Part shown: positions 6,001-55,951 of the stretch, one piece after another
How positions within the stretch are numbered: the first letter of the stretch is position 1
Layout of the letters: every line of letters begins with the position of its first letter
Origin: Thermoanaerobaculia bacterium
GTDB lineage: Bacteria > Acidobacteriota > Thermoanaerobaculia > Multivoradales > UBA5704
DNA: 64,000 nt
Direction of reading: 5' to 3'
NCBI GenBank assembly: GCA_035278895.1
Contig: DATEIO010000954.1
Location: forward strand, 104 to 64,103
Position numbers and translations under genes: made by a program
Notes under the pieces: model-generated
Databases searched by the model: none
What the model saw: only the letters and a program-made list of their open reading frames with translations
What the model was told of the DNA's origin: nothing

Positions 6001-9000
6001 CGATGCTCGGTGAGGCCGAGCGTCAGCAGATCCTTTCGGAGCACCAGGGACGGGCTCTGGAGGGAGAGGTCGCACCGCGTCTCCACGCGCTGTTCGAGCG
6101 GCAGGCACGGCAGCAGCCGGATGCCATCGCCGTGGTCTCAGGGGACGGCGAGCTCCGTTACGGAGACCTGGACGCTCGTGCCGAGCGGCTGGCGGACTGC
6201 CTGCGCGCTCTCGGCGTGGGACCGGAGGTGACGGTAGGCGTCTGCCTGGAACGCTCGCCACAGCTGCTGGTGGCGCTTCTCGGCGTGCTCAAAGCGGGCG
6301 GTGCGTACGTGCCGCTCGATCCGGGCTATCCGGCGGAGCGCCTGGCCTTCATGCTCAAGGACTCCGGCGCGGCAGTGGTGCTGAGCGAGTCCTCGGTGGC
6401 CGGAAAGCTGCCGGAGAGCCAGGCTCAGGTGGTGCGGCTAGATGACGCCTGGCCGTGGGCGGTCGGTCCCATGGCGGGACCGCCGGCCGAGCCGGGCCAC
6501 CTCGCCTATGTGATCTACACCTCGGGCTCCACCGGGCAGCCCAAGGGCGTGGCCATCGAGCACCGCAGCGCGGCCGCCCTCCTGGCCTGGGCGCAGGAGC
6601 TTTTCTCGGACCCCGAGGTCTCCGCAGTTTTCGCCTCCACGTCGATCTGCTTCGACCTCTCGATTTTCGAGCTGTTCGTTCCCCTGTCGCGGGGCGGCCG
6701 TGTGATCCTGGGGACTGACGCCCTGCAGCTTCCCGATCTGGCCGCCGCCGGCGAGGTGACGTTGATCAACACGGTGCCCTCGGCGATCAACGAGCTGCTG
6801 CGGATGAACGCGGTGCCGCCGTCGGTACGCACGATCAACCTGGCGGGTGAGCCCCTGCGCCGGGCCCTGGTCGACCGCATCGCGGCGCTCGGCACGGTGA
6901 AACGGGTGCTCAACCTGTACGGCCCGTCAGAGGACACGACCTACTCGACCGTTGCCGACGTCCCCCTGGACAGCGCCAGGGAGCCGCGGATCGGGCGTCC
7001 GGTGAGCGGATCGTCGGCGTTCGTCCTGGATCGCCAGGATCGGCTGGCGCCGCTGGGCGTGCCGGGCGAGCTGGTCCTCGCCGGCTCCGGGCTGGCGCGC
7101 GGCTACCTGGGCCGGCCGGAGCTGACGGCCGAGCGCTTTGTGCCCGATCCTTTCGGCAACGAGCCGGGCGGACGGCTGTACCGCACCGGTGACCTGGTCC
7201 GCCGATTGCGCGACGGCGATCTGGAGTTCCTGGGCCGGATCGATCATCAGGTCAAAGTCCGCGGCTTCCGGATCGAGCTGGGAGAAATCGAGGCGTCCCT
7301 GCTGGCGCAACCTGGGGTCCGCGAAGCGGTGGCCGTGGTGCGCGAGGACCGGCCGGGAGACCGCCGGCTGGTGGCCTACTTCGCTGGCGAGGCGGCGATT
7401 CCGGATCTCCGCGAGCGGCTGCGCGAAAAGCTCCCCGCCTTCATGGTTCCATCCTTGTTCGTCGCTCTCGACGCACTGCCGCTGACCCCCAACGGCAAGG
7501 TCGACCGGCGGGCGCTGCCGGCGCCGGAGAGCGAGCGGCCGGAGCCGCGGGCCGGGTTCTCGGCACCGGGCACGCCGGCCGAGCAGACTCTCGCGGAGAT
7601 CTGGGCGCAGGTGCTGGGGGTCGAGCGGGTGGGCGTGTACGACGACTTCTTCGAGCTCGGCGGGGATTCGATCCTGAGCATCCAGATCGTGGCCCGCGCC
7701 AACCAGTCAGGGCTGCGAGTGACGCCGCGCCAGCTCTTCGAGCACCCCACCGTGGCCGCGCTGGCCGCGGTGGCCGGCACCGCGGAGATTCCCAAGACCG
7801 AGCAGGGGCTGGTCACAGGACCGGTGCCCCTGACGCCGATCCAGCACTGGTTCTTCGAGCGTGGCTTCCAAAAGGTCGACCATTACAACCAGGCGCTGCT
7901 CCTCGAGGTACGGCAGCCCCTGGAGCCGGCGGTCCTCGAGCGGGCCGTCCTCCATCTCCTGACGCACCACGATGCGCTGCGGCTACGCTTCTTCCGCGGT
8001 TCCTCAGGGTGGCAGCAGGAGAGCCGTGGTCTGCCGGCACGGGCTCCGTTCGCCCGGATCGACCTGTCCACCCTGGCGCCCGCGCAGCGGCGGGCCAACC
8101 TCGAAGCGGCGGCGACCTGCGTACAGGCCGGCCTGCATCTGGCCACCGGACCGATCGTCCGTTGCGCCCTGTTCCACTTGGGCTCCGGCGAGCCGGACCG
8201 CCTGCTGATCGCCATCCATCATCTGGCCGTGGACGGCATCTCCTGGCGCGTGCTGCTGGAGGATCTCCAGGGGGCCTGCGAACAGTTGGCCGCGGGAGGT
8301 GAGGTACGCCTGCCGGCCAAGACCTCCTCCTTCCGGCAGTGGTCCGAGGCGCTGGAACGCCACGCCCGCTCCGCGGCGGTCCGCGAGGAGTTGGGCTTCT
8401 GGCTCTCCGGAGAGCGCCGCGGGGTGCGGCCCCTGCCGGTCGATGATCCCGCAGGACCCGTGGCGGCCACGGCCGGCTCGGCATTGTCCGTCGCAGTCTC
8501 CCTGGGAGAGGACGAAACGCGCGCGCTGCTCCAGGACGCGTCCCGGGCCTACGGCACCCGGATCGACGAGGTGCTGCTGTCCGCTCTGGCGTCCGCTTGC
8601 GCGGATTGGACCGGCGAGCCGCTGACCTTGATCGACGTAGAAGGGCACGGCCGTGAGGACCTCGGCGCCGGGATCGATGTGTCCCGCACCGTCGGCTGGT
8701 TCACGACGATCTACCCGGTGCTGCTCGACATCCGCGGCCTGTGGAGCCCGGGAGCGCTCCTGAAGTCGGTCAAGGAGCAGGTGCGCGGGATTCCGGGGCG
8801 CGGCCTGGGTTACGGGTTGCTGCGCCACTCCAGCGGAGATCCGGAGATCGCCGCTGCGCTGGGCGAGCTGCCGCAGGCCCAGATCCTCTTCAACTACCTC
8901 GGCCAAGTCGACCAAGCCCTGTCCGGGAGCGCGACGTTTGGTCCAGCCCGCGAGTCGGCGGGTCTGTCGATGGACCCGGCGGAGAGCCGCGAGTACCTCC

Positions 9001-12000
9001 TGGATGTCCAGGGAGTCGTGACCGGGGGACGGATGCACCTGACGCTGCGTTCCAGCGAACGGGTCCACCGCCGGGAAACCTTGGAGGCGTTGGCCGAAGG
9101 GATCTGGCGGCACCTGCAGGCCCTGATCGAACATTGTCTGTCTCCCGAGGCTGGCGGCTTCACACCCTCCGATTTCCCCCTGGCGGCTCTCTCCCAGGCC
9201 GCGGTCGATCGCCTCACCGCGGACCGCTCCGTCGAGGAGATCTATCCGCTCTCACCGATCCAGCTCGGGATGCTGCTCCACGCCCTGCGCGAGCCCGGCT
9301 CCGAGGTCTACTGCGAGCAGATGAGCTGCGCGTTCCGGGGGGAGCTCGATCGCGGCGCACTGCAGGCGGCCTGGCGCGGAGTGGTGAGCCGGCACTCCAT
9401 TCTGCGCACCGGGTTTGTCTGGGAGGGGCTCACCGAGCCTCTCCAGGTGGTCCATCGAGAGGTTGAGCTGCCGTTCGTCCACCAGCTCTGGCGGGACGTG
9501 CCGCCAGAGCTGGTGGAGGCCCGCTTCGCCGCCTTCCTGCGAGAGGACAAACAGCGCGGCTTCGATCTCGCGCAGGCGCCCCTGATCCGCCTGACCCTGA
9601 TCGAGCTCGCCCCGGGCGACTACCGGTTCGTCTGGACGACCCACCACATCGTCACCGACGGGTGGTCGACACCGGTCCTGGTCCGGGAGATGTTCGCCCT
9701 CTATGAAGCACAGCGGCAGGGGCGTGCGGCCGACCTTGCAACGGTCCGTCCGTTCCGCGGCTACATCGCCTGGCTGCGAGAGCAGAGCCCCGCCGCGGAC
9801 GAGCGCTTCTGGCGGCAGGAGCTCGCCGGCATCACGGGGCCCACCCCGCTCGACGTCGACCGTTGGGCTCCCGTTTCCGAAGAAACGAGGCATGGCGAGG
9901 AAAGAATCCAGCTCTCCGCGGCCGTCACCGCCGCCCTGGTTGCCCTGACCCGCCGTTGCAGTGTCACCCTGAGCACGGTCGTCCAGGGGGCGCTCGCCCT
10001 TCTGCTCGGTCGCTACAGCGGCCGGCGCGACGTGGTATTTGGCGCCACGGTCTCGGGCCGGCCGGCGCTGCTTGCCGGTGTCGAATCGATCGTCGGGCCG
10101 TTCATCAATACCCTGCCGGTCCGCGTCCGTGTCCCTGCGGATGGGGAAGACACGGCGTCGTGGCTCCGCGGGCTCCAGAAGCACCAGGCCGAGCGCCAGC
10201 AGCATGAGCACAGCCCCTCGGTTCAACCGTGGAGCGAAGTGCCCCTGGGACTGCCGCTCTTCGAGGTTCTGCTGGTGGTGGAGAACCAGCGGCAGGAGGT
10301 TCCGGCGGGCGGACCGGAAGCGGTGGCCGCAGCGGTCGAGATCCGCGAGGTGCGCTCGGAGGTGCGGACGCGCTATCCGCTCAACCTGGTCGTCCTGCCG
10401 GGCCGCGAGCTGGCGCTTTATGTGCCGTACAACGCCGCGCGGTTCGACGCCGGCACGATCCAGCGCTTCCTGCGGCACCTGGCGACCGCGTTGGAGAGCA
10501 TCGCGGAGGCTCCCGAAGCCCCGGTCTCCGAGATCGCCCTGTTCGACCGCCGCGAGCGGGAGCTGGTGACGAGTGGCGGCCGGAGCCTGGAGGAGCCTCT
10601 GCGCCGGCTCATCGCAGGACGGCGGTCGTGGGGCGATGAGGCCATGGCCGCGGGTCTGGAGGCCCTCCGCGATCCCCGGGTTCAGGTGTTGGATGAGGAC
10701 GGGCGGCCAGCGCCGGTCGGGGTGTCCGGAGAGCTCTGGGTGGAGGAGACCGGCGAGGGCGAGGTGAAGCGGCTCCGGACCGGCGAGCTGGCGCGCTTCC
10801 AGGAGACCGGGGAGATCGAGCTCCTCGGCCCTCTCGGCCAACGGATCGAGATCCGTGGCCGGCGCGTGGATCCGCAGACGGTCGAGCCGGTGCTCGCGGA
10901 GCATCCCGGGGTCGCCGAGGCCGCGGTGCTGGGGATCGGGTCCGTGGCGGGGGGCGAGCTGTGGGCCGGCGTCGTGGCCGCCCCTGGCCAGCCTCTGGAC
11001 GTGGCTGCCCTGCGGACCTGGCTCGAGAGCCGGCTGCCGAAGCACCGGGTGCCGCGCACGATCGTGCGCCTGGACGATCCCCCTCGGACACCGGACGGTG
11101 TGCTCGACCGCCGCTCCCTGCTCGCCACGGCGCGGAGCGCAGCGGAGGGCGCCGGCAGCGCTCCTGGAGAGCCGCTTCAGGAGATCCTGCTGGGTCTCTG
11201 GCGGGAGGTGCTCGGCGTCGAGGACCTGGGGGTGCACGACGGGTTCCTGGAGCTCGGCGGCCACTCGCTTCTCGCGGTCCGGCTGCTCGCCCGGCTGCGC
11301 GAGGTCTTCCAGGTCGAGGTCCCGCTGCGCACCCTGTTCGATGCGCCCAGCGTGGCGGAGCTCGCGCCGCAGCTCGCAGCGATGCTGGCGCTCGGCGGTC
11401 CGCGCGAAGCGCCCGCCCTCGTCCGGGTCACGGACGACCGCGGGCGGGACTTCGCCCCTTCGTACGCCCAGCAGAGGCTCTGGTTCCTCGATCAGCTCGA
11501 GCCGGACAATCCCTTCTACACGCACCTGTTCGGCGTCCGGCTCACCGGCCGTCTGGAGGCCGGGACGCTTGAAAAGGCCCTGTCCGAGATCGTGCGGCGG
11601 CACGAGGTTCTACGCACGACCCTGCCGGCGGTCGCGGGACAGCCGGTGCAGCGGATCGCGCCGCCGCGACCGGTCCGGCTGCCGCTGACCGACCTGGGCG
11701 GTTGTGCCGCGGAGGTGGCGGAGCAGGAGCTCCAGGCCTGGAGCCGGGAGGAGGCCTTGCGCCCCTTCGATCTGACGCGCGGACCGCTGCTGCGTGCCGC
11801 CCTGTTCCGTCTGGCCCCCGACCGGCATGTGATCTTCCTGACGTTGCACCACATCGTCATCGATGCCTGGTCGATCGGCCTCCTCTTCCGCGAGATGGCC
11901 ACGCTGTACCAGGCGTTCGAAGCCGGACAGGCTTCGCCGCTGCCGGAGCTGACGATCCAGTACGCCGACTTCGCGGAGTGGCAGCGGGGCTGGATGCAGG

Positions 12001-12875
12001 GAGAGGTTCTCGCGGATCACCTCGCTTACTGGAAACGCCATCTCGCAGGTGCCTGGAAGCTGCTGGAGCTCCCGGCCGACCGTCCGCGCCCCGACCGCCT
12101 GAGCTACCGCGGTGCGTGGATCCGGCTGCCCATTGCCGCAGCCACGTCGCAGAAGATCTCGGAGCTCAGCCGGCGTCAAGGGACGACCCCGTTCATGACG
12201 CTGCTCGCCGCCTTCGACGTCCTCTTGGCGCGGCTCTCGGGCCAGGAGGATGTGGTGGTTGGAATGACGGTCGCCAACCGGACCCGCGCGGAGATCGAAA
12301 ATCTGATCGGTTTCTTCGTGAATCTGCTGCCCCTGCGCGTCGATCTCTCGGGCTCCCCTACCTTCCTCGCTCTGCTGCAGCGGGTCCGCGAAGCCTCTCT
12401 CGGCGCGCAGGCCCACCAGGACCTGCCCTTCGACAAGCTGGTCGAAGCCGTGCGTCCCGACCGGAGCGCGGGCGACGCGCCCTTGTTCCGCATCACCTTC
12501 GGCGTGCAGAACACGCCGCAGGAGACCCTGGATCTCCCGGGGCTGCAGCTCAGCGCCTTCGGCCGGCAGGAGGAGACCGTGCGCTTCGATCTCACCGTCT
12601 GGGTGTTCGAGACCGAAACGGGCTTCTCGGTCCAGTGGAGCTACAGCACCGAGCTGTTCGACGAATCGACCATCCGGCTCCTGCACGACCGGTTCGCCCA
12701 GCTCCTCGAGAGCATCGTCGAGCGGCCCGAGGCCGAGATCGAGGCTCTGGAGATGCTCTCGCCCCAGGAGCGCCAGAAGCGGGCGCGTCTTGAAACAGCG
12801 AAGAAGACCTCGCGGCACGCCAAGCTGCTTGAAGCCCAACCGAAAAAACTCCGGCTGACCCGGCCGAACCACTAA
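1..12875 (+). CDS. Non-ribosomal peptide synthetase, 5' end cut by window edge: (T)-C-A-T-E-C-A-T-E-C-A*-T-C
   Basis: The frame is open from base 3 (LRALFEGPTIAELAERV = tail of a carrier domain), so the TTG at 39 in the ORF track is not the true start. Motifs read in translation: LCL-type C (LPLSFAQQRLWF ~121; HHIASDGWS); A (YTSGSTGRPKG ~1940 and ~6520; by-eye code DLFNNALTYK in both, Ala-like); T (LGGDSILS ~3085 and ~7660); E (LTPIQHWFF ~3265 and ~7835; HHLAVDGxSWR); DCL-type C after each E (YPLSPMQEGMLFH ~4714; YPLSPIQLGMLLH ~9241); 190-aa A remnant 10560-11130; T (LGGHSLLA ~11256); terminal C (HHIVIDAWS ~11850). Stop TAA 12873-12875. Confidence 0.95.
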   Translation, partial: LRALFEGPTIAELAERVHAAFQAGSGLELPAIQPVPRDRDLPLSFAQQRLWFLWQLEPESPAYNSPKALRMRGPLDVPALERTLDEIVRRHEVLRTTFPSTDGRPVQRIDPEARPGLPVHDLSADPDREERARAAFRAEAQRPFDLAREIPIRTRLLVLGPEDHVLLLTTHHIASDGWSVAVLEREVTALYQAFSAGEPSPLPELPVQYADFAEWQREWLQGEVLERQLAYWRGQLAGTPPVLELPLDRPRPAVASPRGKRLAFAVPSALSRSLTELSQRRSVTPFMTLLAGFQVLLARSSGQSDVSVGTPIAGRRHIETEGMIGFFVNTLVMRGAVEGTRSFDELLGQVRETALQAYAHQDLPFERLVDELAPERSLQHTPLFQVMLVLQNVERDGVQIGGLELSPFAAEPGVAKLDLLLSLGEEAGVLRGELQYRTELFDRATIARLAGHLVSLLESAAAAPQSLLSDLALLAPAERHQLLTEWNDTGVLPAGPATLPALFAAQAARSPRAVAVVCGEESLTYAELDRRAGRLAQRLRAMGVGPEVRVGLCAERSLEMVVGLLGVLKAGGAYVPLDPAYPQERLAFMLEDSGAPVVLAGASVLDRLPRGTTRVMALGEEGEDGPEVWATDAELPVEPGHLAYLIYTSGSTGRPKGVAIEHRSAAALLAWAREVFSDEEIAAVFASTSICFDLSVFELFVPLTRGGRVVLGADALELPGLPAAREVTLINTVPSALSELLRMNAVPPSVRAINLAGEPLRRALVDRIAALGTGARVMNLYGPSEDTTYSTFAEVSQRTSEEPRIGRPVSGSAAYVLDRDGQPAPLGVAGELYLAGAGLARGYLGRPELTAERFVPDPFGREPGGRLYRTGDLVRQRREGDLDFLGRIDHQVKIRGFRIELGEIEAALLAQPCVREAVVLVREDRPGDRRLVAYVAGDAVEPTLLRERLGERLPAYMVPALFVQLSALPLTPNGKVDRRSLPVPEGERPELRSGFLAPGTPAEQTLAAIWSQVLGVAQIGAHDNFFELGGDSILSIQIVARANQAGLRLTPRQIFLHPTVAGLAAAAGDPESTPAAEQGLVTGPVPLTPIQHWFFDQGFHRVDHFNQAVLLEVRKPLELKVLEQAVLHLLAHHDGLRLRFVQEPSGWRQEIGDLPQQAPVLFLDLSALPEDPWKDALEREATRVQASLSLTSGPIVRCALIHLGDGEPDRLLIVVHHLAVDGVSWRVLLEDLQRACEQLAAGGEARLPAKTSSYRQWAERLESHACSAAVRDEPGFWLSEDRRRVRPLPVDDLEGAAGLAGNTAGSTVSVAVELEEDETQALLQEVPKAYRTRIDEVLLAALALASEDWTGEPLSLVDLEGHGREELGADLDVSRTVGWFTSIYPALLDTQGLRSPGELLKSIKEQVRGIPGRGLGYGLLRYAGGDPETAAALGTLPQAQVIFNYHGQIDQVLAGSSIFAPASETTGPSMDPSERRRHLLSLNGIVSAGRLRMTVRFSDRVYRPATIQALAEGFRQHLRGLIEHCLSPEAGGATPADFPLLRASQRELDLLLAAVASSRAPEGRPEIQDLYPLSPMQEGMLFHSLFEAGTTAYVCQSRYALENLDVQAFERAWDAVIARQPVLRTGFFTTGSGRPVQAVERKAHLALRAEDWRGLAADRQREGLDELARRERQEGFELTKPPLMRQVLVRVGEREHHLIWTHHHLLMDGWSVPLVLREVAAAYRAFSAGEPLELPEARPYRDYIAFLQARDPGPAEELWRRILAGFTVPTVLPVERREASASPVEERGREQVRWPATSFAGLEAFARRHQLTVHTLVQGAWALLLGRYSGSDDVVFGSVVSGRPPQLAGVESMAGLFINTLPVRVQMPPRASVLPWLQSLQAEQLALREVEHTPLVQVQRWSEVPPGTPLFDTLLVFENYPVDPRIGQGLGALQIRRVEAVEHTSYPLNLLAAASGELSLTLEHDASRFEAATICALRLHLEQLLGGLVEDPQRSLADLPMLGEAERQQILSEHQGRALEGEVAPRLHALFERQARQQPDAIAVVSGDGELRYGDLDARAERLADCLRALGVGPEVTVGVCLERSPQLLVALLGVLKAGGAYVPLDPGYPAERLAFMLKDSGAAVVLSESSVAGKLPESQAQVVRLDDAWPWAVGPMAGPPAEPGHLAYVIYTSGSTGQPKGVAIEHRSAAALLAWAQELFSDPEVSAVFASTSICFDLSIFELFVPLSRGGRVILGTDALQLPDLAAAGEVTLINTVPSAINELLRMNAVPPSVRTINLAGEPLRRALVDRIAALGTVKRVLNLYGPSEDTTYSTVADVPLDSAREPRIGRPVSGSSAFVLDRQDRLAPLGVPGELVLAGSGLARGYLGRPELTAERFVPDPFGNEPGGRLYRTGDLVRRLRDGDLEFLGRIDHQVKVRGFRIELGEIEASLLAQPGVREAVAVVREDRPGDRRLVAYFAGEAAIPDLRERLREKLPAFMVPSLFVALDALPLTPNGKVDRRALPAPESERPEPRAGFSAPGTPAEQTLAEIWAQVLGVERVGVYDDFFELGGDSILSIQIVARANQSGLRVTPRQLFEHPTVAALAAVAGTAEIPKTEQGLVTGPVPLTPIQHWFFERGFQKVDHYNQALLLEVRQPLEPAVLERAVLHLLTHHDALRLRFFRGSSGWQQESRGLPARAPFARIDLSTLAPAQRRANLEAAATCVQAGLHLATGPIVRCALFHLGSGEPDRLLIAIHHLAVDGISWRVLLEDLQGACEQLAAGGEVRLPAKTSSFRQWSEALERHARSAAVREELGFWLSGERRGVRPLPVDDPAGPVAATAGSALSVAVSLGEDETRALLQDASRAYGTRIDEVLLSALASACADWTGEPLTLIDVEGHGREDLGAGIDVSRTVGWFTTIYPVLLDIRGLWSPGALLKSVKEQVRGIPGRGLGYGLLRHSSGDPEIAAALGELPQAQILFNYLGQVDQALSGSATFGPARESAGLSMDPAESREYLLDVQGVVTGGRMHLTLRSSERVHRRETLEALAEGIWRHLQALIEHCLSPEAGGFTPSDFPLAALSQAAVDRLTADRSVEEIYPLSPIQLGMLLHALREPGSEVYCEQMSCAFRGELDRGALQAAWRGVVSRHSILRTGFVWEGLTEPLQVVHREVELPFVHQLWRDVPPELVEARFAAFLREDKQRGFDLAQAPLIRLTLIELAPGDYRFVWTTHHIVTDGWSTPVLVREMFALYEAQRQGRAADLATVRPFRGYIAWLREQSPAADERFWRQELAGITGPTPLDVDRWAPVSEETRHGEERIQLSAAVTAALVALTRRCSVTLSTVVQGALALLLGRYSGRRDVVFGATVSGRPALLAGVESIVGPFINTLPVRVRVPADGEDTASWLRGLQKHQAERQQHEHSPSVQPWSEVPLGLPLFEVLLVVENQRQEVPAGGPEAVAAAVEIREVRSEVRTRYPLNLVVLPGRELALYVPYNAARFDAGTIQRFLRHLATALESIAEAPEAPVSEIALFDRRERELVTSGGRSLEEPLRRLIAGRRSWGDEAMAAGLEALRDPRVQVLDEDGRPAPVGVSGELWVEETGEGEVKRLRTGELARFQETGEIELLGPLGQRIEIRGRRVDPQTVEPVLAEHPGVAEAAVLGIGSVAGGELWAGVVAAPGQPLDVAALRTWLESRLPKHRVPRTIVRLDDPPRTPDGVLDRRSLLATARSAAEGAGSAPGEPLQEILLGLWREVLGVEDLGVHDGFLELGGHSLLAVRLLARLREVFQVEVPLRTLFDAPSVAELAPQLAAMLALGGPREAPALVRVTDDRGRDFAPSYAQQRLWFLDQLEPDNPFYTHLFGVRLTGRLEAGTLEKALSEIVRRHEVLRTTLPAVAGQPVQRIAPPRPVRLPLTDLGGCAAEVAEQELQAWSREEALRPFDLTRGPLLRAALFRLAPDRHVIFLTLHHIVIDAWSIGLLFREMATLYQAFEAGQASPLPELTIQYADFAEWQRGWMQGEVLADHLAYWKRHLAGAWKLLELPADRPRPDRLSYRGAWIRLPIAAATSQKISELSRRQGTTPFMTLLAAFDVLLARLSGQEDVVVGMTVANRTRAEIENLIGFFVNLLPLRVDLSGSPTFLALLQRVREASLGAQAHQDLPFDKLVEAVRPDRSAGDAPLFRITFGVQNTPQETLDLPGLQLSAFGRQEETVRFDLTVWVFETETGFSVQWSYSTELFDESTIRLLHDRFAQLLESIVERPEAEIEALEMLSPQERQKRARLETAKKTSRHAKLLEAQPKKLRLTRPNH
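10560..11130 (+). other. Truncated adenylation domain remnant (A*): only A6-A10-like C-terminal part, degenerate
   Basis: Only ~190 aa lie between the C-A linker (EIALFDRRERE ~10530) and the carrier domain. The recognisable relics are GELWVEE (A6), LRTGEL (A7), GQRIEIRGRRVDPQTVE (A8), LPKHRVP (A9) and PDGVLDRR (A10). The A10 Lys is replaced by Val at 11100-11102. There is no SGSTG P-loop and no specificity pocket. Confidence 0.8.
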
Positions 12876-12886
12876 GGAGGATGTCC

Positions 12887-13939
12887 ATGAGCCAACTGAC
12901 GAGCGATTCCAGCTTCAGCCGATTCGCCGCGCGCCCGCGCAAGGCCGTGCGCCTGTCCCAGGAGGAACTGATCAAGACCCGCTTCCTGCCGGAAGCGGAC
13001 GGTCAGGAGCTGCCGCTGGTGATCGAGCCCAACGTGGAGAATCTCAATCTCACCACCTGGGCGGCCAACAACCAGGGCTTCCTGGAAGAGAAGCTCCACA
13101 CCTACGGCGCTCTCCTGTTCCGCGGCTTCGACGTCGACGGCCCCGAACAGTTCCGCGAGGTGGCGCGGGCGATCTGCCCGGACCTGCTCGACTACACCGA
13201 GCGCGCGGCGCCGCGCAACGAGGTGAAGGAGAACGTCTACACCTCGACCGAGTTCCCGCCCGACCAGCACATCCCGATGCACCACGAGATGTCCTACTCG
13301 CACAACTGGCCGACCCGGCTCCTGTTCTTCTGCGATCAACCCTCGCAGGAAGGGGGCTGCACGCCGATCACCGACGATCGAAAAGTGATCGATCTGCTGG
13401 ATCCGGAGGTCAAACAGCGCTTCCTGGAGCGGGGAGTGATGTACGTCCGCAATTACGGAGAAGGGGTCGACATGCCCTGGCAGGTGGTCTTCCAGACCGC
13501 GGACAGGGCCGGGGCCGAGGCCTACTGCCGGGACGCCCACATGGACATCGAGTGGCGCGACGGCGATCGCGTCCGCACCCGCGCCCGGCGCCAGGTGCTC
13601 GCGACCCATCCGAAGACGGGCGACACGGTCTGGTTCAACCATGCCCACCTGTTCCACATGTCCAACCTGGAGCCGGCAGTCCGCGACGCGCTGCTCGCCG
13701 AGTTTGAGCCCGACGAGCTGCCGCGCAACGCCTTCTACGGCGACGGCTCGGCGATCGAGGCGCCGGACCTGGAGCACATCCGCCGCACCTACAGCGACAA
13801 CGCCGTCCGCTTCCTTTGGCAGAAGGGGGACGTCCTTCTGGTCGACAACTTCCTGGTGTCGCACGGCCGCGATCCGTTCAAGGGACCCCGCCGGATCCTG
13901 GTCGCCATGGCGGACCTCTACACCAATCCGGATCTCTGA
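12887..13939 (+). CDS. TauD/SyrP/KtzO-like Fe(II)/2-oxoglutarate-dependent amino-acid hydroxylase
   Basis: AAGGAGG lies at 12874-12880. The track start ATG 12881 abuts it; the in-frame ATG 12887 has a 6-nt spacer and is preferred. The translation shows the TauD-family layout, with an HxE iron ligand pair (PMHHEMSY) and a distal His-Gly-Arg (FLVSHGRDPFKG). The gene starts 5-11 nt after the upstream NRPS stop, inside the NRPS operon. Confidence 0.85.
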   Translation: MSQLTSDSSFSRFAARPRKAVRLSQEELIKTRFLPEADGQELPLVIEPNVENLNLTTWAANNQGFLEEKLHTYGALLFRGFDVDGPEQFREVARAICPDLLDYTERAAPRNEVKENVYTSTEFPPDQHIPMHHEMSYSHNWPTRLLFFCDQPSQEGGCTPITDDRKVIDLLDPEVKQRFLERGVMYVRNYGEGVDMPWQVVFQTADRAGAEAYCRDAHMDIEWRDGDRVRTRARRQVLATHPKTGDTVWFNHAHLFHMSNLEPAVRDALLAEFEPDELPRNAFYGDGSAIEAPDLEHIRRTYSDNAVRFLWQKGDVLLVDNFLVSHGRDPFKGPRRILVAMADLYTNPDL

Positions 13940-13988
13940 TCCCAACGAGACCCTGATCACGAATTCGACTCCGTAGAGGGGATGGCAC

Positions 13989-15280
13989 ATGCGGCAGCAA
14001 GTCATTGAAGGTTTCCGTCTCTCTCCCCAGCAGCGGCAGCTCTGGCGGCACCGCGGCACGGCAGGAGCCCAGGTGGTGCAGTGCGCCGCCACTCTTGAGG
14101 GAGCGGATCCGGACCGTTGGGAACAGGCGCTCCGCGAGGTGGCCTGGCGGCACGAGGCCCTGCGCACCCGCTTCGAATGCCTGCCGGGCATGGAAGTGCC
14201 GATCCAGGTGATCGGCGAGGAGGTCGCGCTCCCGGTACGGCGGATCTCCGCCGGCTCCATGGCTGCCGCGGGAGTGGAGGAGGCGGTCCGGAGCTGGATG
14301 GAGCAGGAGAGGGCTCCTTTCGACCTCCGGTCCGCTCCGCCGGTCCGCTTCGCTCTGGCCTCTCTCGGCGCGGGCCGGGACCTCCTGATCCTCTCTGCTC
14401 ATGCGCTGTGCGCCGATCCCTGGAGCCTGGAGAATCTTCTCTGCGACCTCGTCCAGGCCTGCGCCGCCCCGGGCGACGGCGAGGCCTTCGACGCGGAGGC
14501 TCTGGGATACGTCCAGTTCTCCGAATGGCAGAACGAGCTGCTCGAAGACCGTGAGAACGAAGACGAGGAGGCGTCCGCCTTCTGGGCCCGGCAGACCCGG
14601 GACGACGGCGCGCCGCTCTCGCTGCCGATCGAACGGGCTCCGCACCGCCGGACCACGGCGGAGAGAGCGGCGGCCCCGGCCGTGCGCCGACGCCTGGAGG
14701 CCGCGGCCCTGGAGCGGGCGGCGGAGGCCTGCGGATCCTCGGTCACGACCCTGGTTCTAACCTGCTGGGGGCTCCTCCTGGCCCGCCTCGCGGACGTCGG
14801 GGAGATCTCGATGCAGCTCTACACCCCGGGTCGCAAGTTCCCTGAGCTCCAGGGCGCGATCGGAGCCTTCGGCCGCTATCTTCCGCTGCGCCTGCGGGGG
14901 CCGGCGGGCCGGTCGCTCAAGGCGGAGGCCGCGCGCGTCACGGAAAGGCTGCTGGAGGTCGAGAGGTGGGAGGAGCTTTTCGCCGGGCGCGCGGAATCCG
15001 GCGTGGAGAGCGGCGATCCGGCAGATTTCGGTTTCGATGCCGAGGACCGGCAGACCCTGTTCGAGGAGGGGAGCCTGCGCCTCACAGTCCTCGAGACGGA
15101 GTGGGCGAGCCAGCCTTTCCGGCTCCGCCTGTCGGTGAGCCGCTGCGCCGGTGAGCTCGAGCTGACCTTGCGGTTCGATCCGGCGCACTTCGACCGTGGG
15201 GCCGTGCACCGGCTCGCGGACAGCCTGGAGTCCCTGCTGCGGCAGGCCGCGCGCTCGCCCGAGACCGCCACGGCCGACTT
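13989..15280 (+). other. Full-length condensation-like domain lacking the catalytic His (C*)
   Basis: About 430 aa. It has a C1-like motif (LSPQQRQLW) and its own C-A linker (LDVLGEAERQQMDAWN ~15285). The C3 motif reads H-A-L-C-A-D-P, so the second (catalytic) His is Ala. Confidence 0.7.
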
Positions 15281-18200
15281 GGACGTCCTGGGCGAGGCCG
15301 AGCGGCAGCAGATGGACGCGTGGAATGCGACCGCGATCGATTTCCCGGACGAGGCGAGCCTTTCCTGGCGGTTTGCGGCCCAGGCCGAGCGTGCGCCTGA
15401 AGCGGTGGCCGTGGTGGCACCGGAAGGGCAGCTCACCTTCCGCGCTCTCAGCAAACGCGTCGACCGTCTCGCGGATCGCCTGCGCGGCCTCGGGGTCGGT
15501 CCCGAGGTGCGCGTGGCCCTCTGCCTCGACCGTTCCCTGGATCTGATCACCGGTATTCTGGGCGTGCTGGCGGCGGGCGGAGCCTACGTGCCGTTCGATC
15601 CCTGGCAGCCGGCCGAGCGCCTGGCGGCCCTGCTCGAAGACTCAGGCGCGCCGGTGGTCCTCTGCCAGAGCCGCTCGCGGGGGCGGGTGCCCTGCGGAGC
15701 CTGGCAGGTGGTCTGCCTCGATGGGGAAAGCGCACCCCTGGCGCAGGAGCCGGAGAGGTGTGCGAGCCCGGCAGCCGGACCGGAGAGCCTCGCCTACGCC
15801 ATCTACACCTCGGGCTCCACCGGCCGCCCCAAGGCGGCGTTGATCGAAAACCGGTCCGTGGCGAACCTCCTGTTGGCTCTGGAGCGCGAGATCTACTCCC
15901 GGCTTGACGGCCGCCGGCCCCTGCGGGTGACTCTCAATGCGCCGGTCTCGTTCGATGCCTCCGTCAAGCAGTGGATCCAACTGCTGCAGGGCCGGACCCT
16001 GCTGGTGGTTCCCGAGGAGGTGCGGGCGGACGGCGAAGCGTTGCTCTTGTGGCTCAACCAGAACCACGTGGACGTCCTCGACTGCACGCCGTCGCAGCTC
16101 CGCCTGCTCCTCGCCGCCGGCCTCGGCAGCGAGCCCGACCGCTTCGCGATCTACCCGCGCGCCGTGCTGGTCGGTGGCGAGGCCATCGATCCCGGCCTGT
16201 GGGCACAGCTCGCCCGCGACAAGGGGCGGCTCTTCTTCAACGTCTACGGTCCCACGGAATGCACGGTCGACACGACCGTGTGCCGGGTGGAGCCGGGGGG
16301 CACCCCTTCGATCGGCGGGGCGCTCGCCAATGTCCGGACCTACGTGGTCGACGCCGGGTGGCGCCGGACGCCGATCGGGGTTCCGGGCGAGCTCTGCATC
16401 GCCGGCGCCGGCCTGGCGCGCGGGTATGCCGGGCGCCCCGACCTGACGGCGGAGAAGTTCGTGCCCGATCCGTTCGCCCCTGAGCCGGGCGCCCGTCTCT
16501 ACCGGACCGGCGACCGCGCGCGCTTCTGCGGAGACGGCCGGCTGGAATACCTCGGGCGCGTCGACCACCAGGTCAAGATCCGTGGCTACCGGGTGGAGCT
16601 GGGGGAGATCGAAGGGGTGCTCTCGCGCCACCCGGGCGTGGCACAGACGGTGGCGGCGCTGCGCGAAGACCAGCCCGGACGCCCGCGCCTGGTGGCCTAC
16701 GTGACGCCGCGGCGGCGGCACGCGGAGAAAGTGGGGGAGGGGCAGCACGAGCTGCCGAACGGCCTCCGCGTCACCCACCAGAACCGCAACGAGACCGAGT
16801 ACCTGTACCGGGAGATCTTTGAGAGCCGGTGCTACGCCCGGCACGGAATCTTCCTGCCCGAGGACGCCTGCGTTTTCGACGTCGGTGCCAACATCGGCAT
16901 GTTCACCCTCTTCGTGCAGGGAGAGTGTACGCGGCCGCGGGTCTACGCCTTCGAGCCCCTGTCTGCGATCCACGACTGCCTGCGGGCGAACAGCCAGCGG
17001 TATGGGCTGGACGTGAAGCTCTTCCGGTTCGGCCTGTCGGATCGGGAACGGACGGAGCGGTTCACCTACTACCCCAGCTACTCGATGATGTCCGGGCAGA
17101 GTGCCTACGCTCAGCCGTCCGCCGAGATCGAGGTCATCCGGCGCTTCCTCGAAAACCAGACCGCCAGCGGCATCGCTGGCGCGGACGCCCTGCTGGCCGA
17201 GGCGGGCGACCTGCTTGCCAATCGCTTCCGGATGGAGGAGGCCGAGGTCACCTTGCGCCGTCTCTCCAACGTGATGCGGGAGCAGGGGATCGAGCACGTC
17301 GATCTGTTGAAGATCGACGTGCAGCGGGCCGAGCTGGACGTGCTCCTCGGGATCGACGACGAGGATTGGCCGCGCATCGACCAGGTCGTCCTCGAAGTCC
17401 ACGACGGGGCCGGCGAGGCGACCGAAGGACGGGTCGCTCAGATCCGCGCCCTGCTGGAGCCGCGCGGCTTCCGCGTGGTGGCCGAGCAGGACGAGCTGCT
17501 GACCGGCACCGATCGCTACAACGTCTACGCCATCCGCCAGGGCCTGGAGACCCGGGCCGCCCGCGCCTGCGAGGCTTCAGGGCTCGCCCGGTTGCGCGAG
17601 GCCGGCGCGGCGGAGCTCTCGGCCGACGGCCTTCGCGAGCACGCCCGCCGCTGGCTGCCGGACTTCATGGTCCCCTCCGATCTGGTGATCCTGGACGAGC
17701 TCCCCATCACCCCCAACGGCAAGGTCGACCGCCGCGCGCTGCCGGCGCCGGAAGAGGTGGCCGCAGCCGGGCAGCGCCAGGTCCGGGCGCCACGCACTCC
17801 GATCGAAGAGGTCCTGGTGGGGCTCTTCGCCGCAGTGCTCGGCCTCGACCGGGTCGGCGTCGACGAGAGCTTCTTCGACCTGGGGGGGCACTCCCTGATG
17901 GCCACCCAGCTCATGGCGCGGGTGCGCGAGACCTACCGGGTGGAGATGCCGCTGCGCCTCCTCTTCGAGCGCCCCACGCCGGAGCGGCTGGCCCAGAGCG
18001 TGGCGACCGCTCTGCGCGCCGGCGTCGACGTCCGGGAGTCCATCCCGCCGGTGCCGCGCGAGGGCGATCTGCCGCTCTCGTTCGCGCAGCAGCGGCTCTG
18101 GTTCGTCCAGCAGTTGGAGCCGGACGCCACGATGTACAACAGCATCAAGGCGCTCCGCGCCCGGGGGGAGCTCGACGTCGCGGCCCTGGAGGCCACCTTC

Positions 18201-19475
18201 ACGGAGCTGGTGCGGCGCCACGAGATCCTGCGGACCACCTTCCTCTCGGTCTCCGGCGAGCCCGTGCAGCGCATCCATCCGCCGGCCCCGGTCGACCTCC
18301 CGGTGATCGACCTGGAGGGATTGCCGGAGCCCGTCCGTCTCGACGAGGCGCGCCGCCGGTGCAAGAGCGAGACGACGACCCCCTTCGATCTGGCGCACGA
18401 GGTGATCCGGTTCCGGCTCCTCCGGCTCTCCTCCAAGGATCACGTCATCCTCCTCGGTTTCCACCACATCCTCGGAGACGCCTGGTCGCTGAACGTGATC
18501 GAACGCGAAGTCCGGACCCTGTACGAAGGGTTCCGGGAGGGGCGTCCGGCCGGGTTGCCGGACCTGCCGGTCCAGTACGCCGATTTCGCGTGGTGGCAGC
18601 GCCAGTGGCTGCAGGGGGAGGTCCTCGACGCGCATCTCGCGTACTGGAAGAAGCAGCTCGCCGGGGTGCCGCTGGTCCTCGATCCCGCCGCTCACGAGCC
18701 ACGGCCCCGGGGGGTTGCCCGCCGGCAGGCGGAGAGCCTCGTGGCCCTGGGGCCGGAGATCACGGAGAAGATCAAGGCTCTCGGCCTCCAGCAGGGGACC
18801 ACGCTGTACATGACCCTCCTGTCCGCCTTCTCCGTGCTGATGTCCCGCTTCGCGCAGCAGGACGATCTGGTCCTGGGCACCTCGTTCGCGGGCCGCGAGC
18901 GCGTCGAGACCGAGGGGCTCATCGGGTGCTTCGTCAACGTCCTGCCGATGCGAGCGAATCTCACCGACCGGCCGACGTTCCTGGAGCTTCTGGGGCGCAT
19001 GCGTGAGGTGACGCTGGGCGCCTACGCGCATCAGAACCTCCCCTTCGAGCGCCTGGTCGAAGAGCTGACGGACGAGAGGCGGCTCGGCCGCAATCCGGTC
19101 GTCCAGGTCTTCTTCGGGATCCAGAACGCGCTGGACGTGAAGCTCGGGCTCCCCGGCCTCGAGATGGAGCCCTTCGAGGAGGGATACGAAGAGGTGCGCG
19201 TCGACCTGAGCGTCTGGATGTGGGAATCGGGAGACGCCCTGAAAGGGGTGTGGAGCTACGACACCTCTCTGTTTCTCCCGCAGACCATCGAACGGATGCA
19301 GAAGGGCTTCGAGAATCTCCTCGCAAGCCTCCTCGCCGACCCGGAAGCCCGGGTTCACGACCTGGAGCTCAGGACCGAAGCCGAGAAGGAAGAGCTGCAA
19401 CAACAGGCGAAGGCTCTCAAGCAGTCCAACCTCGAGAGATTCCGCAAAGCGAAGGCCCGGCCGGCTGCTGTCTGA
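13989..19475 (+). CDS. Non-ribosomal peptide synthetase: C*(His-less)-A(Glu-like, interrupted by FkbM-type methyltransferase)-T-C
   Basis: ATG 13989 follows AGAGGGGA. N-terminal C-like domain has MRQQVIEGFRLSPQQRQLW but SAHALCADP in place of HHxxxDG (~14394-14420). A core: YTSGSTGRPK ~15805; by-eye code DAKDLGVVDK. A8: KIRGYRVELGEIE ~16575. Insert 16710-17545. A9/A10: LPDFMVP ~17655, PNGKVDRR ~17715. T: LGGHSLMA ~17880. Terminal C: LPLSFAQQRLWF ~18070, HHILGDAWS ~18465. Stop TGA 19473-19475. Confidence 0.93.
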   Translation: MRQQVIEGFRLSPQQRQLWRHRGTAGAQVVQCAATLEGADPDRWEQALREVAWRHEALRTRFECLPGMEVPIQVIGEEVALPVRRISAGSMAAAGVEEAVRSWMEQERAPFDLRSAPPVRFALASLGAGRDLLILSAHALCADPWSLENLLCDLVQACAAPGDGEAFDAEALGYVQFSEWQNELLEDRENEDEEASAFWARQTRDDGAPLSLPIERAPHRRTTAERAAAPAVRRRLEAAALERAAEACGSSVTTLVLTCWGLLLARLADVGEISMQLYTPGRKFPELQGAIGAFGRYLPLRLRGPAGRSLKAEAARVTERLLEVERWEELFAGRAESGVESGDPADFGFDAEDRQTLFEEGSLRLTVLETEWASQPFRLRLSVSRCAGELELTLRFDPAHFDRGAVHRLADSLESLLRQAARSPETATADLDVLGEAERQQMDAWNATAIDFPDEASLSWRFAAQAERAPEAVAVVAPEGQLTFRALSKRVDRLADRLRGLGVGPEVRVALCLDRSLDLITGILGVLAAGGAYVPFDPWQPAERLAALLEDSGAPVVLCQSRSRGRVPCGAWQVVCLDGESAPLAQEPERCASPAAGPESLAYAIYTSGSTGRPKAALIENRSVANLLLALEREIYSRLDGRRPLRVTLNAPVSFDASVKQWIQLLQGRTLLVVPEEVRADGEALLLWLNQNHVDVLDCTPSQLRLLLAAGLGSEPDRFAIYPRAVLVGGEAIDPGLWAQLARDKGRLFFNVYGPTECTVDTTVCRVEPGGTPSIGGALANVRTYVVDAGWRRTPIGVPGELCIAGAGLARGYAGRPDLTAEKFVPDPFAPEPGARLYRTGDRARFCGDGRLEYLGRVDHQVKIRGYRVELGEIEGVLSRHPGVAQTVAALREDQPGRPRLVAYVTPRRRHAEKVGEGQHELPNGLRVTHQNRNETEYLYREIFESRCYARHGIFLPEDACVFDVGANIGMFTLFVQGECTRPRVYAFEPLSAIHDCLRANSQRYGLDVKLFRFGLSDRERTERFTYYPSYSMMSGQSAYAQPSAEIEVIRRFLENQTASGIAGADALLAEAGDLLANRFRMEEAEVTLRRLSNVMREQGIEHVDLLKIDVQRAELDVLLGIDDEDWPRIDQVVLEVHDGAGEATEGRVAQIRALLEPRGFRVVAEQDELLTGTDRYNVYAIRQGLETRAARACEASGLARLREAGAAELSADGLREHARRWLPDFMVPSDLVILDELPITPNGKVDRRALPAPEEVAAAGQRQVRAPRTPIEEVLVGLFAAVLGLDRVGVDESFFDLGGHSLMATQLMARVRETYRVEMPLRLLFERPTPERLAQSVATALRAGVDVRESIPPVPREGDLPLSFAQQRLWFVQQLEPDATMYNSIKALRARGELDVAALEATFTELVRRHEILRTTFLSVSGEPVQRIHPPAPVDLPVIDLEGLPEPVRLDEARRRCKSETTTPFDLAHEVIRFRLLRLSSKDHVILLGFHHILGDAWSLNVIEREVRTLYEGFREGRPAGLPDLPVQYADFAWWQRQWLQGEVLDAHLAYWKKQLAGVPLVLDPAAHEPRPRGVARRQAESLVALGPEITEKIKALGLQQGTTLYMTLLSAFSVLMSRFAQQDDLVLGTSFAGRERVETEGLIGCFVNVLPMRANLTDRPTFLELLGRMREVTLGAYAHQNLPFERLVEELTDERRLGRNPVVQVFFGIQNALDVKLGLPGLEMEPFEEGYEEVRVDLSVWMWESGDALKGVWSYDTSLFLPQTIERMQKGFENLLASLLADPEARVHDLELRTEAEKEELQQQAKALKQSNLERFRKAKARPAAV
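16710..17545 (+). other. FkbM-family SAM-dependent methyltransferase inserted between A8 and A9 of the adenylation domain
   Basis: About 280 aa are inserted after RLVAYV (~16700) and before LPDFMVP (~17655). The insert contains a VFDVGANIGMF SAM-binding motif (16871-16903) and the stretch YAFEP...RFGLSDRE...LLKIDVQRAELDVL, which is typical of FkbM-type methyltransferases. Confidence 0.8.
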
Positions 19476-50568: not shown

Positions 50569-50647
50569 GTGGGAAGCGGTTTACCCCGGCACGGGAAAGG
50601 AGTTACCCGAAGGCCGGTATTTTCAAGGGGTTGCGGCGCCTCCGGCC

Positions 50648-50663
50648 TGGCACTTGCCTTGCT
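50648..50663 (+). promoter_or_regulatory. Sigma54 (-24/-12) promoter element TGGCAC-N5-TTGCT
   Basis: The sequence TGGCACttgccTTGCT has exact GG-N10-GC spacing. It sits 80 nt after the exporter stop and 114 nt before the ADOP permease ATG, on the same strand. Confidence 0.55.
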
Positions 50664-50776
50664 CAATCGTCTTCGCGAGGTTGAGCATGAGCTGGCAAAC
50701 GCCCGCGAACGAAGCAGAACCTCGCGAGTTGGAATGAGTGGCTGATGACAGCCACGGAGAACCAGGAGACATCGCC

Positions 50777-53233: not shown

Positions 53234-53279
53234 CTGGACGCGGGAGGCCAGAGCCACAGCCAGGGTATGATCCTGGTTG

Positions 53280-54544: not shown

Positions 54545-54560
<16 letters not shown>
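53280..54560 (+). CDS. Soluble sensor histidine kinase (GAF-like N-terminal domain, HisKA, HATPase_c)
   Basis: H-box AHEIRNPLTAIRST. N/G boxes LNLLLNALQSMP, IADTGPGIP, GTGLGLAICYGIV. No hydrophobic TM segments. The track start is TTG 53277; ATG 53280 is the next codon. Confidence 0.85.

Positions 54561-55951
<1,391 letters not shown>

Follow-up and report, generated by a model that had tools for sequence, protein, structure and literature searches.

His-less condensation-type domains at subunit junctions of a Thermoanaerobaculia peptide synthetase and their association with TauD-family hydroxylases

Organization of the synthetase operon and its two junctions

We have analysed a 64,000-nucleotide stretch of DNA from a Thermoanaerobaculia bacterium (assembly GCA_035278895.1, contig DATEIO010000954.1, positions 104 to 64,103), hereafter the window, in whose own numbering all positions are given. 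Its + strand bears an operon of three non-ribosomal peptide synthetase (NRPS) genes, with a TauD-family gene between NRPS-1 and NRPS-2. At this boundary, junction 1, two condensation-type domains stand in series: NRPS-1 ends in a condensation (C) domain, and NRPS-2, encoded beyond the TauD gene, begins with a C-like domain that lacks the catalytic histidine and is here called C*. We consider it likely that junction 1 represents a conserved cassette in split-gene form, in which the hydroxylase would modify a carrier-bound residue and C* would serve as scaffold and docking element.

Domain maps of the window were obtained with phmmer, using the window's own domains as queries, and with Pfam. NRPS-1 (frame 39..12875) starts beyond the left edge of the window and reads ..T-C-A-T-E-C-A-T-E-C-(degenerate A remnant)-T-C-tail by both methods, where A, T and E denote adenylation, thiolation (carrier) and epimerization domains. 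NRPS-2 (13989..19475) is built as C*-A-(embedded FkbM methyltransferase, MT)-T-C-tail and NRPS-3 (ATG 19505..48913) as C*-A-T-(C-A-T)x8-TE, ending in a thioesterase (TE). The intergenic gaps are 5, 49 and 29 nt, a GGAGG-like site precedes each start codon, and the assembly line, entirely of NRPS type, comprises at least 13 modules. The TauD gene is the only one in the whole window. The elements of junction 1, of the NRPS-2 module and of junction 2, the boundary between NRPS-2 and NRPS-3, are the following.

11157..11396, + strand: last T domain of NRPS-1 (aa 3707-3786); Pfam PP-binding 1.6e-17, phmmer; FLELGGHSL intact
11463..12782, + strand: terminal LCL-type C domain of NRPS-1 (aa 3809-4248); Pfam Condensation 1.9e-111
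12783..12872, + strand: basic C-terminal tail of NRPS-1 (ARLETAKKTSRHAKLLEAQPKKLRLTRPNH); 30 aa, net charge +7
12881..13939, + strand: predicted stand-alone Fe(II)/alpha-ketoglutarate TauD-family hydroxylase, 352 aa; Pfam TauD 2e-47
12914..12979, + strand: N-terminal motif of the hydroxylase (FSRFAARPRKAVRLSQEELIKT), similar to the motifs in the basic tails of NRPS-1 and NRPS-2
13989..15323, + strand: C*, an interface-type domain, of NRPS-2 (aa 1-445); Pfam Condensation 7.8e-50
15354..16748, + strand: A domain core of NRPS-2, Glu code DAKDLGVVD(K); Pfam AMP-binding 1.3e-71
16809..17498, + strand: FkbM-family methyltransferase inside the NRPS-2 A domain, after core motif A8; Pfam Methyltransf_21 (PF05050) 1.2e-16
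17784..18023, + strand: T domain of NRPS-2; Pfam PP-binding 3.2e-16; FFDLGGHSL
18081..19397, + strand: terminal LCL C domain of NRPS-2 (HHILGDAWS); 405 bits against the terminal C of NRPS-1
19398..19472, + strand: basic tail of NRPS-2 (QQQAKALKQSNLERFRKAKARPAAV); net charge +6
19511..20857, + strand: second C*, at the N-terminus of NRPS-3 (ATG 19505, GGAGGA ribosome-binding site); Pfam Condensation 2.9e-37

The anatomy that the original prediction had read at junction 1 is borne out. NRPS-1 does end in a complete C domain, which covers positions 8-454 of the 456 of the Pfam Condensation profile (373 bits), keeps HHIVIDAWS intact and aligns with the window's 12 remaining His-containing C domains. 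The chain departs from the usual C-A linker at LEMLSPQERQK, and the Lys/Arg-rich tail, foreseen at about 30 residues, begins where the linker helix would. By analogy with MxgA and AmbB, two proteins described below, this C domain is presumed to be the real elongating C domain for the NRPS-2 module, acting in trans, and the last T domain of NRPS-1 is presumed to be its donor carrier. The module that contains this carrier has no working A domain. Between its C and T domains lie about 190 aa (aa 3512-3706; 10572-11156), which correspond to no more than the A7-A10 end of an A domain (Pfam AMP-binding_C alone) and in which A10 has lost its lysine (PRTPDGVLDRR); the donor T domain of junction 1 would therefore be loaded in trans, or the module skipped.

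The ribosome-binding site of the hydroxylase gene, GGAGG, overlaps the stop region of NRPS-1, to which the gene is translationally coupled. Its product matches positions 12-265 of the 267 of the Pfam TauD profile and carries HHE at residues 134-136, within PMHHEMSYSHNWP, a segment near-identical to PPHHEMSYSHNWP of AmbD. The best relative in the PDB is At3g21360 (2.8e-43), and TauD proteins at the same position in two of the related loci described below (L057 and L063) are 62% and 58.6% identical. With its TauD fold, its HxD/E...H motif and its place in an NRPS operon, the protein is a predicted carrier-dependent hydroxylase of the TauD/TfdA type. Searches of the PDB brought up no solved structure of an interface domain or of an NRPS-type hydroxylase; two leads were discarded, 9yut being a sulfoquinovose dioxygenase and 8z0q, a 'special condensation domain', being HtmB2-CT and not an interface domain.

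Beyond the hydroxylase gene NRPS-2 opens, as foreseen, with a full-length C-like domain (profile positions 7-455 of 456) whose motif reads A-H-A-L-C-A-D, with the first His present and the catalytic second His replaced by Ala. When the 15 C-like domains of the window were aligned with MAFFT, 13 read HHxxxD[GA]WS and the two C* domains did not. C* is also without C6/C7 core motifs of the HQDxPFE type. It has a C-A linker of its own (LDVLGEAERQQMDAWN), which leads, again as foreseen, into a Glu-code A domain, DAKDLGVVDK being the classic Stachelhaus code for Glu. An AlphaFold2 (AF2) model of C* (pLDDT 80, pTM 0.84) shows a complete C-domain fold, and Foldseek aligns it with Txo2, DhbF and X-domain structures at a TM-score of ~0.8. 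The MT embedded in the A domain was an element absent from the original prediction, and a literature search for embedded FkbM methyltransferases beside hydroxylases gave nothing specific. The T domain behind it is presumed, by analogy with the AMB and Mxg systems, to be the site of Glu hydroxylation and methylation and the acceptor for the terminal C domain of NRPS-1.

Junction 2 repeats this design without the enzyme. NRPS-2 ends in a C domain, of ordinary LCL type since it scores 405 bits against its NRPS-1 counterpart, and in a basic tail; NRPS-3 then begins with the second C*, and a hydroxylase gene between them is absent. The nearest TauD gene lies 5.6 kb upstream of this C*, and a TauD partner is accordingly present at junction 1 and not at junction 2. 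The second C* is likewise full length, has His at neither position of its motif (L-P-S-V-C-G-D) and is followed by an A domain with the Glu code DAKDLGVVD. Both C* domains combine homology to C domains, a missing catalytic second His and a place at the protein N-terminus directly before A-T, all features of interface (I) domains, whose founding paper, on siderophores, is said to be that of Reitz et al. 2019 (PNAS 116:19805). The intact HHxxxDG core and C motifs of an active LCL domain are found in the terminal C domains of NRPS-1 and NRPS-2 and in neither C*.

The numbering used to read the Stachelhaus codes was checked on GrsA, for which DAWTIAAICK was recovered. In NRPS-1 the code DLFNNALTY is read in two modules, with an E domain after each; NRPS-2 reads Glu* (the asterisk marking a C* module) and NRPS-3 Glu*-Ser-Glu-Gln-Gln-(Ile/Val-like)-Ser-Ser-Gln-TE. 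The codes of NRPS-3 therefore reveal one more Glu module, the third, with an ordinary C domain (C-A(Glu)-T), and the encoded peptide is predicted to be rich in Glu/Gln and Ser.

A family of His-less domains and its gene neighbourhood

Is the loss of histidine a peculiarity of this operon? A scan of one genome per species returned at least 561 relatives of C*, and the counts that follow come from the best 78 loci, on all six frames of which C*, LCL, A, T and TauD were mapped. These loci hold 103 C* domains from at least five phyla and belong to Acidobacteriota, Cyanobacteria, Chloroflexia, Myxococcota (Sorangium), Bacillus, Actinomycetota and Nitrospiria. When C* was used in a protein search, only distant relatives (at most 40% identity) were found, in Acidobacteriota and cyanobacteria, all of which begin at the protein N-terminus with IEGFRLSPQQ..LW and have LPxLCAD in place of HHxxxDG.

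Among 104 distinct C* sequences the catalytic position is occupied by Ala (70), Ser (29), Gly (2), Val (2) or Thr (1) and never by His; the position of the first His holds Pro in 84, Ser in 18 and His in 2. The Asp of the motif is invariant (104/104), and two residues before it stands Cys in 82 sequences, replaced elsewhere by Ile, Ser, Tyr, Val or Gly. Further invariant residues are G8, LSPQQ, W19, D143, Y174, WQN and G281-R282, and EWQN, like LSPQQ, is a conserved signature; LP-A-L-C-A-D and EWQNELLE are signatures of the C* family that LCL domains do not have. Although the window's own two C* domains share no more than 31% identity, every invariant column of the family is present in both. 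The His-less state is a trait of the family, far beyond chance. The prediction had named as its own refutation a C* that falls with starter C domains and regains its His on proper alignment, and neither was seen: besides the missing His, the C* profile matches the LCL structure of TycC at 1.6e-60 and the starter domains of RzmA and CDA-C1 at 3e-15 and 2e-17, far nearer to LCL than to starter C domains.

The position of the domain is just as constant. All 103 C* domains are the first domain of their open reading frame, followed by A(-T), and none is internal. What lies upstream of them falls into five classes.

Fused ..T-C-TauD protein: 37/103
Stand-alone TauD: 43/103
C + tail, no TauD between: 6/103
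Nearest upstream gene more than 450 bp off: 11/103
Locus edge: 6/103

A TauD directly precedes C* in 80 cases (37 fused and 43 stand-alone), and the prediction that C* is an inactive interface-type domain tied to TauD enzymes is supported by this synteny and by the His-less, N-terminal clade. In 18 of the 43 stand-alone cases a C + tail protein is visible before the TauD, exactly as at junction 1; of the others, 18 run into the edge of the locus, a different neighbour is present in 4, and 3 show hydroxylases in tandem. The six C + tail cases without TauD have exactly the arrangement of junction 2, and in two of them (L075 and L076) no TauD lies within the 10-kb flanks. The whole pattern of the window, C+tail, TauD, C*-A-T-C+tail and C*-A-T.. 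in succession, recurs in Blastocatellia bacterium AA13 (L053/L023).

The modules behind C* carry Asp codes in 57 cases, DSALIAEVW in 10 and Glu-like codes in 9, with Gln, Asn and Thr also represented. The original prediction had described such domains as partners of stand-alone Asp beta-hydroxylases. Stand-alone enzymes and Asp modules do occur, but they are not the only form, as fused hydroxylases and Glu/Gln-like, Asn, Thr and other codes are also found. Five modules of the related loci also have an embedded MT; they lie in Sorangium cellulosum So ce26 (L063), in both C* modules of the acidobacterial locus L014, and in L047 and L011; the combination with Glu seen in the window is found in So ce26 and L014. 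Neither C* domains nor hydroxylases clustered cleanly by substrate (Glu versus Asp) at this sampling.

Two variants deserve mention in their own right. A Thr code (DFWNIGMVH) is carried by one C*-A-T module of Blastocatellia AA13 that stands right behind a C + basic-tail protein (L053 12947-17557; L023 538-5148). Because no hydroxylase lies between the two, this module suggests that interface-type domains can act as junction elements also where the residue does not have to be hydroxylated. In three other loci an additional, stand-alone TauD lies between a fused ..C-TauD protein and C* (L044 2819-4198, L020 8921-9997, L041 3678-3980). These tandem hydroxylases are reminiscent of ambC/ambD, and the modules of L044 and L020 carry the Glu-like code DSKDLGVVD.

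Basic tails and the role of the interface domain

A basic motif links the parts of the cassette. Where TauD is fused to C, the linker between them runs through LEMLTEAEKQKQ, ~20 K/E/Q-rich residues and NFxKFKSVKPKAVSLPQ, and the motif occurs once. In split systems it occurs twice, in the tail of the C protein (QKLKxxKRKxV) and at the TauD N-terminus (KLGxVRRKAVxLSxxELIKT); in the window it is represented by AKLLEAQPKKLRLT in the NRPS-1 tail, SRFAARPRKAVRLSQEELIKT at the N-terminus of TauD and LERFRKAKARPAAV in the NRPS-2 tail. The basic tails that follow a terminal C domain (24-47 aa) have a median charge of +5 before TauD (n=21) and +4.5 before C* (n=6), and terminal-C tails that precede an ordinary C domain are acidic (median -5, n=5) with a different motif, ..FDFD. 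Basic tails are specific to the C / TauD / C* cassette. I domains, for their part, have an acidic stretch after EWQN with a median charge of -4, whereas the corresponding stretch of LCL domains has -1, and the charges of tail and I domain together speak, as a correlation, for electrostatic docking between the two.

Another type of subunit that ends in a C domain has short acidic tails (..LEREVTFDFE.., ..DELDDFDFD) and was observed in L021, L024, L046, L059, L071, L078, L052 and L056. An ordinary C-like domain opens the visible downstream gene after such subunits in L052 and L056, and likewise in L023, L025 and L055. These tails may be a different docking code.

Two homologous systems have been studied biochemically. 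In myxoglucamide biosynthesis MxgA ends in ..ACP-C-Ox (ACP, acyl carrier protein; Ox, the hydroxylase) and MxgB is I-A(Glu)-PCP (PCP, peptidyl carrier protein); Ox beta-hydroxylates Glu-S-PCP, the C domain of MxgA condenses, and hydroxylation and condensation are mutually dependent (PMC13638107). The I domain of MxgB was dispensable in vitro, C_MxgA alone being sufficient (PMC13638107). According to the account of Chen et al. 2022 given in the same paper, the I domain of the glidomide system is by contrast indispensable for His hydroxylation by GlmF. In the AMB (oxyvinylglycine) pathway of Pseudomonas aeruginosa AmbC and AmbD hydroxylate C3 and C4 of the Glu bound to T1 of AmbE, the MT of AmbE methylates the 4-hydroxyl, and the C domain of AmbB condenses in trans onto AmbE-T1 (PMC8968710). 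The N-terminal 'Q' domain of AmbE has been described as unexplained in function and was unrecognised by a conserved-domain search.

On these grounds we favour, with good though not full confidence, the reading of junction 1 as the split-gene form of a conserved cassette made of an LCL C domain with basic tail, a TauD hydroxylase and a His-less I domain of C fold, in which carrier-bound Glu is modified, the upstream C domain condenses in trans and C* is scaffold and docking element. The cassette itself is observed here in its anatomy, its conservation as a family, its synteny and its homology to AmbE and AmbD; the order of catalysis, the regiochemistry and the docking role we infer by analogy with Mxg and AMB. 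The A domain would load L-Glu onto the carrier domain of NRPS-2, and the TauD enzyme would oxidise the tethered residue at C3 or C4, with a slight preference for C4 since the hydroxylase resembles AmbD (54% identity) more than AmbC (41%) in tblastn comparisons with the frameshift-ridden amb region of the P. aeruginosa assembly CP083355.1 (L079). The embedded FkbM methyltransferase would then O-methylate the new hydroxyl, and the terminal C domain of NRPS-1 would join the upstream peptide to the modified Glu in trans. The I domain would make no bond. It would keep the C-A platform of the acceptor module, I-A(Glu)-MT-T, and offer a landing site to the basic tail of the upstream C domain, to the hydroxylase with its similar N-terminal motif, or to both. 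It would also mark Glu modules for processing, leaving module 3 of NRPS-3, with its ordinary C-A(Glu)-T order, unmarked, and at junction 2 the tail of NRPS-2 and the I domain of NRPS-3 (I-A(Glu)-T) would use the same docking pair.

Several points weigh against this reading. The placement of C* in the named, published I-domain clade is indirect, by way of an architecture identical to that described for MxgA/B and CcsJK/L and of the match to AmbE. In MxgB, the closest Glu system, the I domain is dispensable in vitro, and its role may be only kinetic or structural (PMC13638107). No TauD lies between C and C* at junction 2 and at the six related junctions, one of which serves a Thr code (L053/L023); given these, L075 and L076 included, the I domain cannot be solely a recruiter of hydroxylases. 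The choice of C4 depends on two identities read from a frameshifted assembly, and the charge complementarity of tails and I domains is a correlation, not an interaction.

What else could a C fold without its catalytic residue do at the head of a module? A purely docking or structural part, in which C* replaces C in the C-A platform and binds the upstream basic tail while the hydroxylase finds the carrier-bound substrate alone or via the upstream C domain, is possible but doubtful. The junctions without TauD just listed, the basic tails that accompany C* with or without a TauD, and the dispensability of I_MxgB for coupled hydroxylation and condensation in vitro (PMC13638107) all agree with it. 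However, the 80 of 103 C* domains immediately behind a TauD are hard to explain if the two are functionally unrelated, the I domain of glidomide is reported to be needed for GlmF, and the recurrence of the tail motif at the hydroxylase N-terminus suggests a shared binding site. The prediction that C* is a recruitment platform and/or a surrogate that preserves the C-A interface is supported in this open form; its recruitment half is disputed between glidomide and Mxg, and the junctions without TauD favour the docking or surrogate half. We tentatively entertain a further form of the idea, in which the basic motif ([FL]-K-x-x-K-[RP]-K-x-V after a K/E/Q-rich helix) and the acidic I domain are a dedicated docking pair for NRPSs split after C, with or without a hydroxylase. 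The hydroxylase would then reach the marked module via the same N-terminal motif, competing with the tail or using a second site, and the I domain would be primarily a communication domain.

Two further explanations fare worse. C* might be a relic, a C domain decayed after a gene split or the insertion of the hydroxylase gene and retained only to stabilise the A domain. The loss of the catalytic His and of the C6/C7 core motifs, the dispensability of the I domain of MxgB in vitro (PMC13638107) and the divergence of AmbE 'Q', so great that a conserved-domain search missed it, would suit this idea, but we think it improbable: the family has its own invariant residues across at least five phyla, its signatures, absent from LCL domains, amount to positive conservation of new features and not drift, and two copies as dissimilar as those of the window retain all invariant columns. 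That C* is instead an active, non-canonical, starter-like C domain that forms the bond, leaving the upstream C domain another job such as presenting substrate to the hydroxylase, is very improbable. In its favour are a place at the N-terminus like that of starter C domains, an invariant Asp in the motif, a Cys ahead of this Asp in most sequences and a complete modelled fold, but His is never found at the catalytic position, the Cys is not universal and the profile is far nearer to LCL than to starter structures. Upstream C domains with a perfect HHxxxDxxS would moreover be orphans, and in both biochemically studied homologous systems it is the upstream C domain that condenses (PMC13638107, PMC8968710).

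Implications and comparison with known systems

The favoured reading of the cassette, an active C domain, a hydroxylase and a His-less I domain, has practical consequences. Junctions of the C|C* kind should be annotated neither as module duplications nor as broken genes, the active C domain sitting on the previous protein. C* marks a residue that is probably oxidised on the assembly line and, in NRPS-2, also O-methylated, which for structure prediction places hydroxy- or methoxy-Glu at the NRPS-2 position and possibly at position 1 of NRPS-3. While the role of the I domain is disputed, the locus offers an internal control series, all on Glu: an I domain with hydroxylase, an I domain without an adjacent hydroxylase, and an ordinary C domain. 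Should the docking-pair idea be true, a locus with a single TauD beside two I-A(Glu)-T modules and an ordinary C-A(Glu)-T module would also be a natural test bed for it, and the basic tail mirrored at the N-terminus of the hydroxylase makes the docking hypothesis concrete. The arrangement is widespread and already described, and less exceptional than the original prediction held; antiSMASH 8 has profiles for these hydroxylases and for interface domains. What may be new is the conserved basic tail motif with its second copy at the start of the hydroxylase, the I-domain junctions that lack a hydroxylase, and the control series of Glu modules within this one locus.

The surroundings of the operon bear on its product. 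Downstream of the TE (48763-53233 and 53267-55951) lie genes for an ATP-binding cassette (ABC) exporter with transmembrane and nucleotide-binding domains, a MacB/FtsX-type permease and a sigma-54 enhancer-binding response regulator. Neither a TonB-dependent receptor nor a siderophore-binding protein nor siderophore-uptake genes were seen within the window. As the receptor and the binding protein are missing from it, the product is probably not a siderophore, unlike those of most described interface-domain clusters. For the assembly line as a whole no close relative was found; the best domain identities, 30-62%, are in Acidobacteriota and Sorangium.

The Mxg pathway is the closest Glu system. 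In both an upstream protein ends in an LCL C domain (HHxxxDG) with an alpha-ketoglutarate dioxygenase attached to it or encoded after it, and the next protein opens with a C-like domain without the second His, followed by A(Glu)-T as in MxgB. The hydroxylase is fused in MxgA and a separate gene in the window. The window also differs from the Mxg, glidomide and siderophore I-domain systems in the methyltransferase embedded in the A domain, in a second I-domain junction without a hydroxylase of its own, and in the setting of the cassette within a large all-NRPS line with no siderophore-uptake genes nearby in the window. In the cyanochelin pathway CcsJK (..C-TauD) and CcsL jointly install a beta-hydroxy-Asp residue, and this order, a fused ..T-C-TauD protein followed by an interface domain and an Asp-code A domain, is the commonest among the related loci (the 37 fused cases). 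It differs from the window in its Asp, its fused hydroxylase and its siderophore context with a transporter cassette. The X domain of glycopeptide synthetases is alike in being an inactive C-fold scaffold for oxidative enzymes acting in trans, and Foldseek aligns its structures 4tx2 and 4tx3 with the C* model at TM 0.80-0.81. The X domain, however, follows the T domain at the C-terminus of the final module, recruits cytochrome P450s and belongs to another clade of the C superfamily.

The gene order is also like that of the AMB pathway, in which AmbB (A-T-C), AmbC, AmbD and AmbE (Q-A(Glu)-MT-T1-C2-T2-TE) follow one another as the parts of junction 1 do. Both systems have a C-terminated synthetase, one or more TauD-type oxygenases, a non-catalytic domain of ~450 aa and A(Glu)-FkbM MT-T. 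All identities to AmbC, AmbD and AmbE are per-fragment values because the assembly compared is frameshift-ridden. With the P. aeruginosa fragment P0056 the embedded MT shares 53% identity; this fragment has the A8 motif and then the same MT, its relatives map to the AmbE region of the amb locus, and aa 589-1148 of NRPS-2 are 42-48% identical to the AmbE region by tblastn. The C* hidden Markov model (HMM) matches the N-terminal 'Q' region at the 5' end of ambE at 4e-11 and 2e-6 (L079 7764-9311), where the signatures LSPLQTRAW, MPGMSLPVQVL, LLLAAPAFVVDAASL, FQHFSEWANEAL and SGRLFNEF can be read together with a His-less A-P-A-F-V-V-D motif and FSEWANE. We place the Q domain of AmbE in the C* family, an assignment that may be new and that links the classical AMB pathway to I-domain systems. 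From these matches and the hydroxylase identities given above, NRPS-2 is AmbE-like up to T1. The two diverge beyond the common part, C | oxygenase | I/Q-A(Glu)-MT-T, and the window does not hold an oxyvinylglycine cassette of the AMB type: it has one oxygenase and not two, an LCL C domain in place of the dehydrating CmodAA and no T2-TE, and the C-terminal end of AmbB, as read from the frameshifted assembly, is without an obvious basic tail motif. Given the single oxygenase, the ordinary LCL C domain and the missing T2-TE, hydroxy- or methoxy-Glu is predicted for the window and not the methoxyvinylglycine of the AMB pathway.

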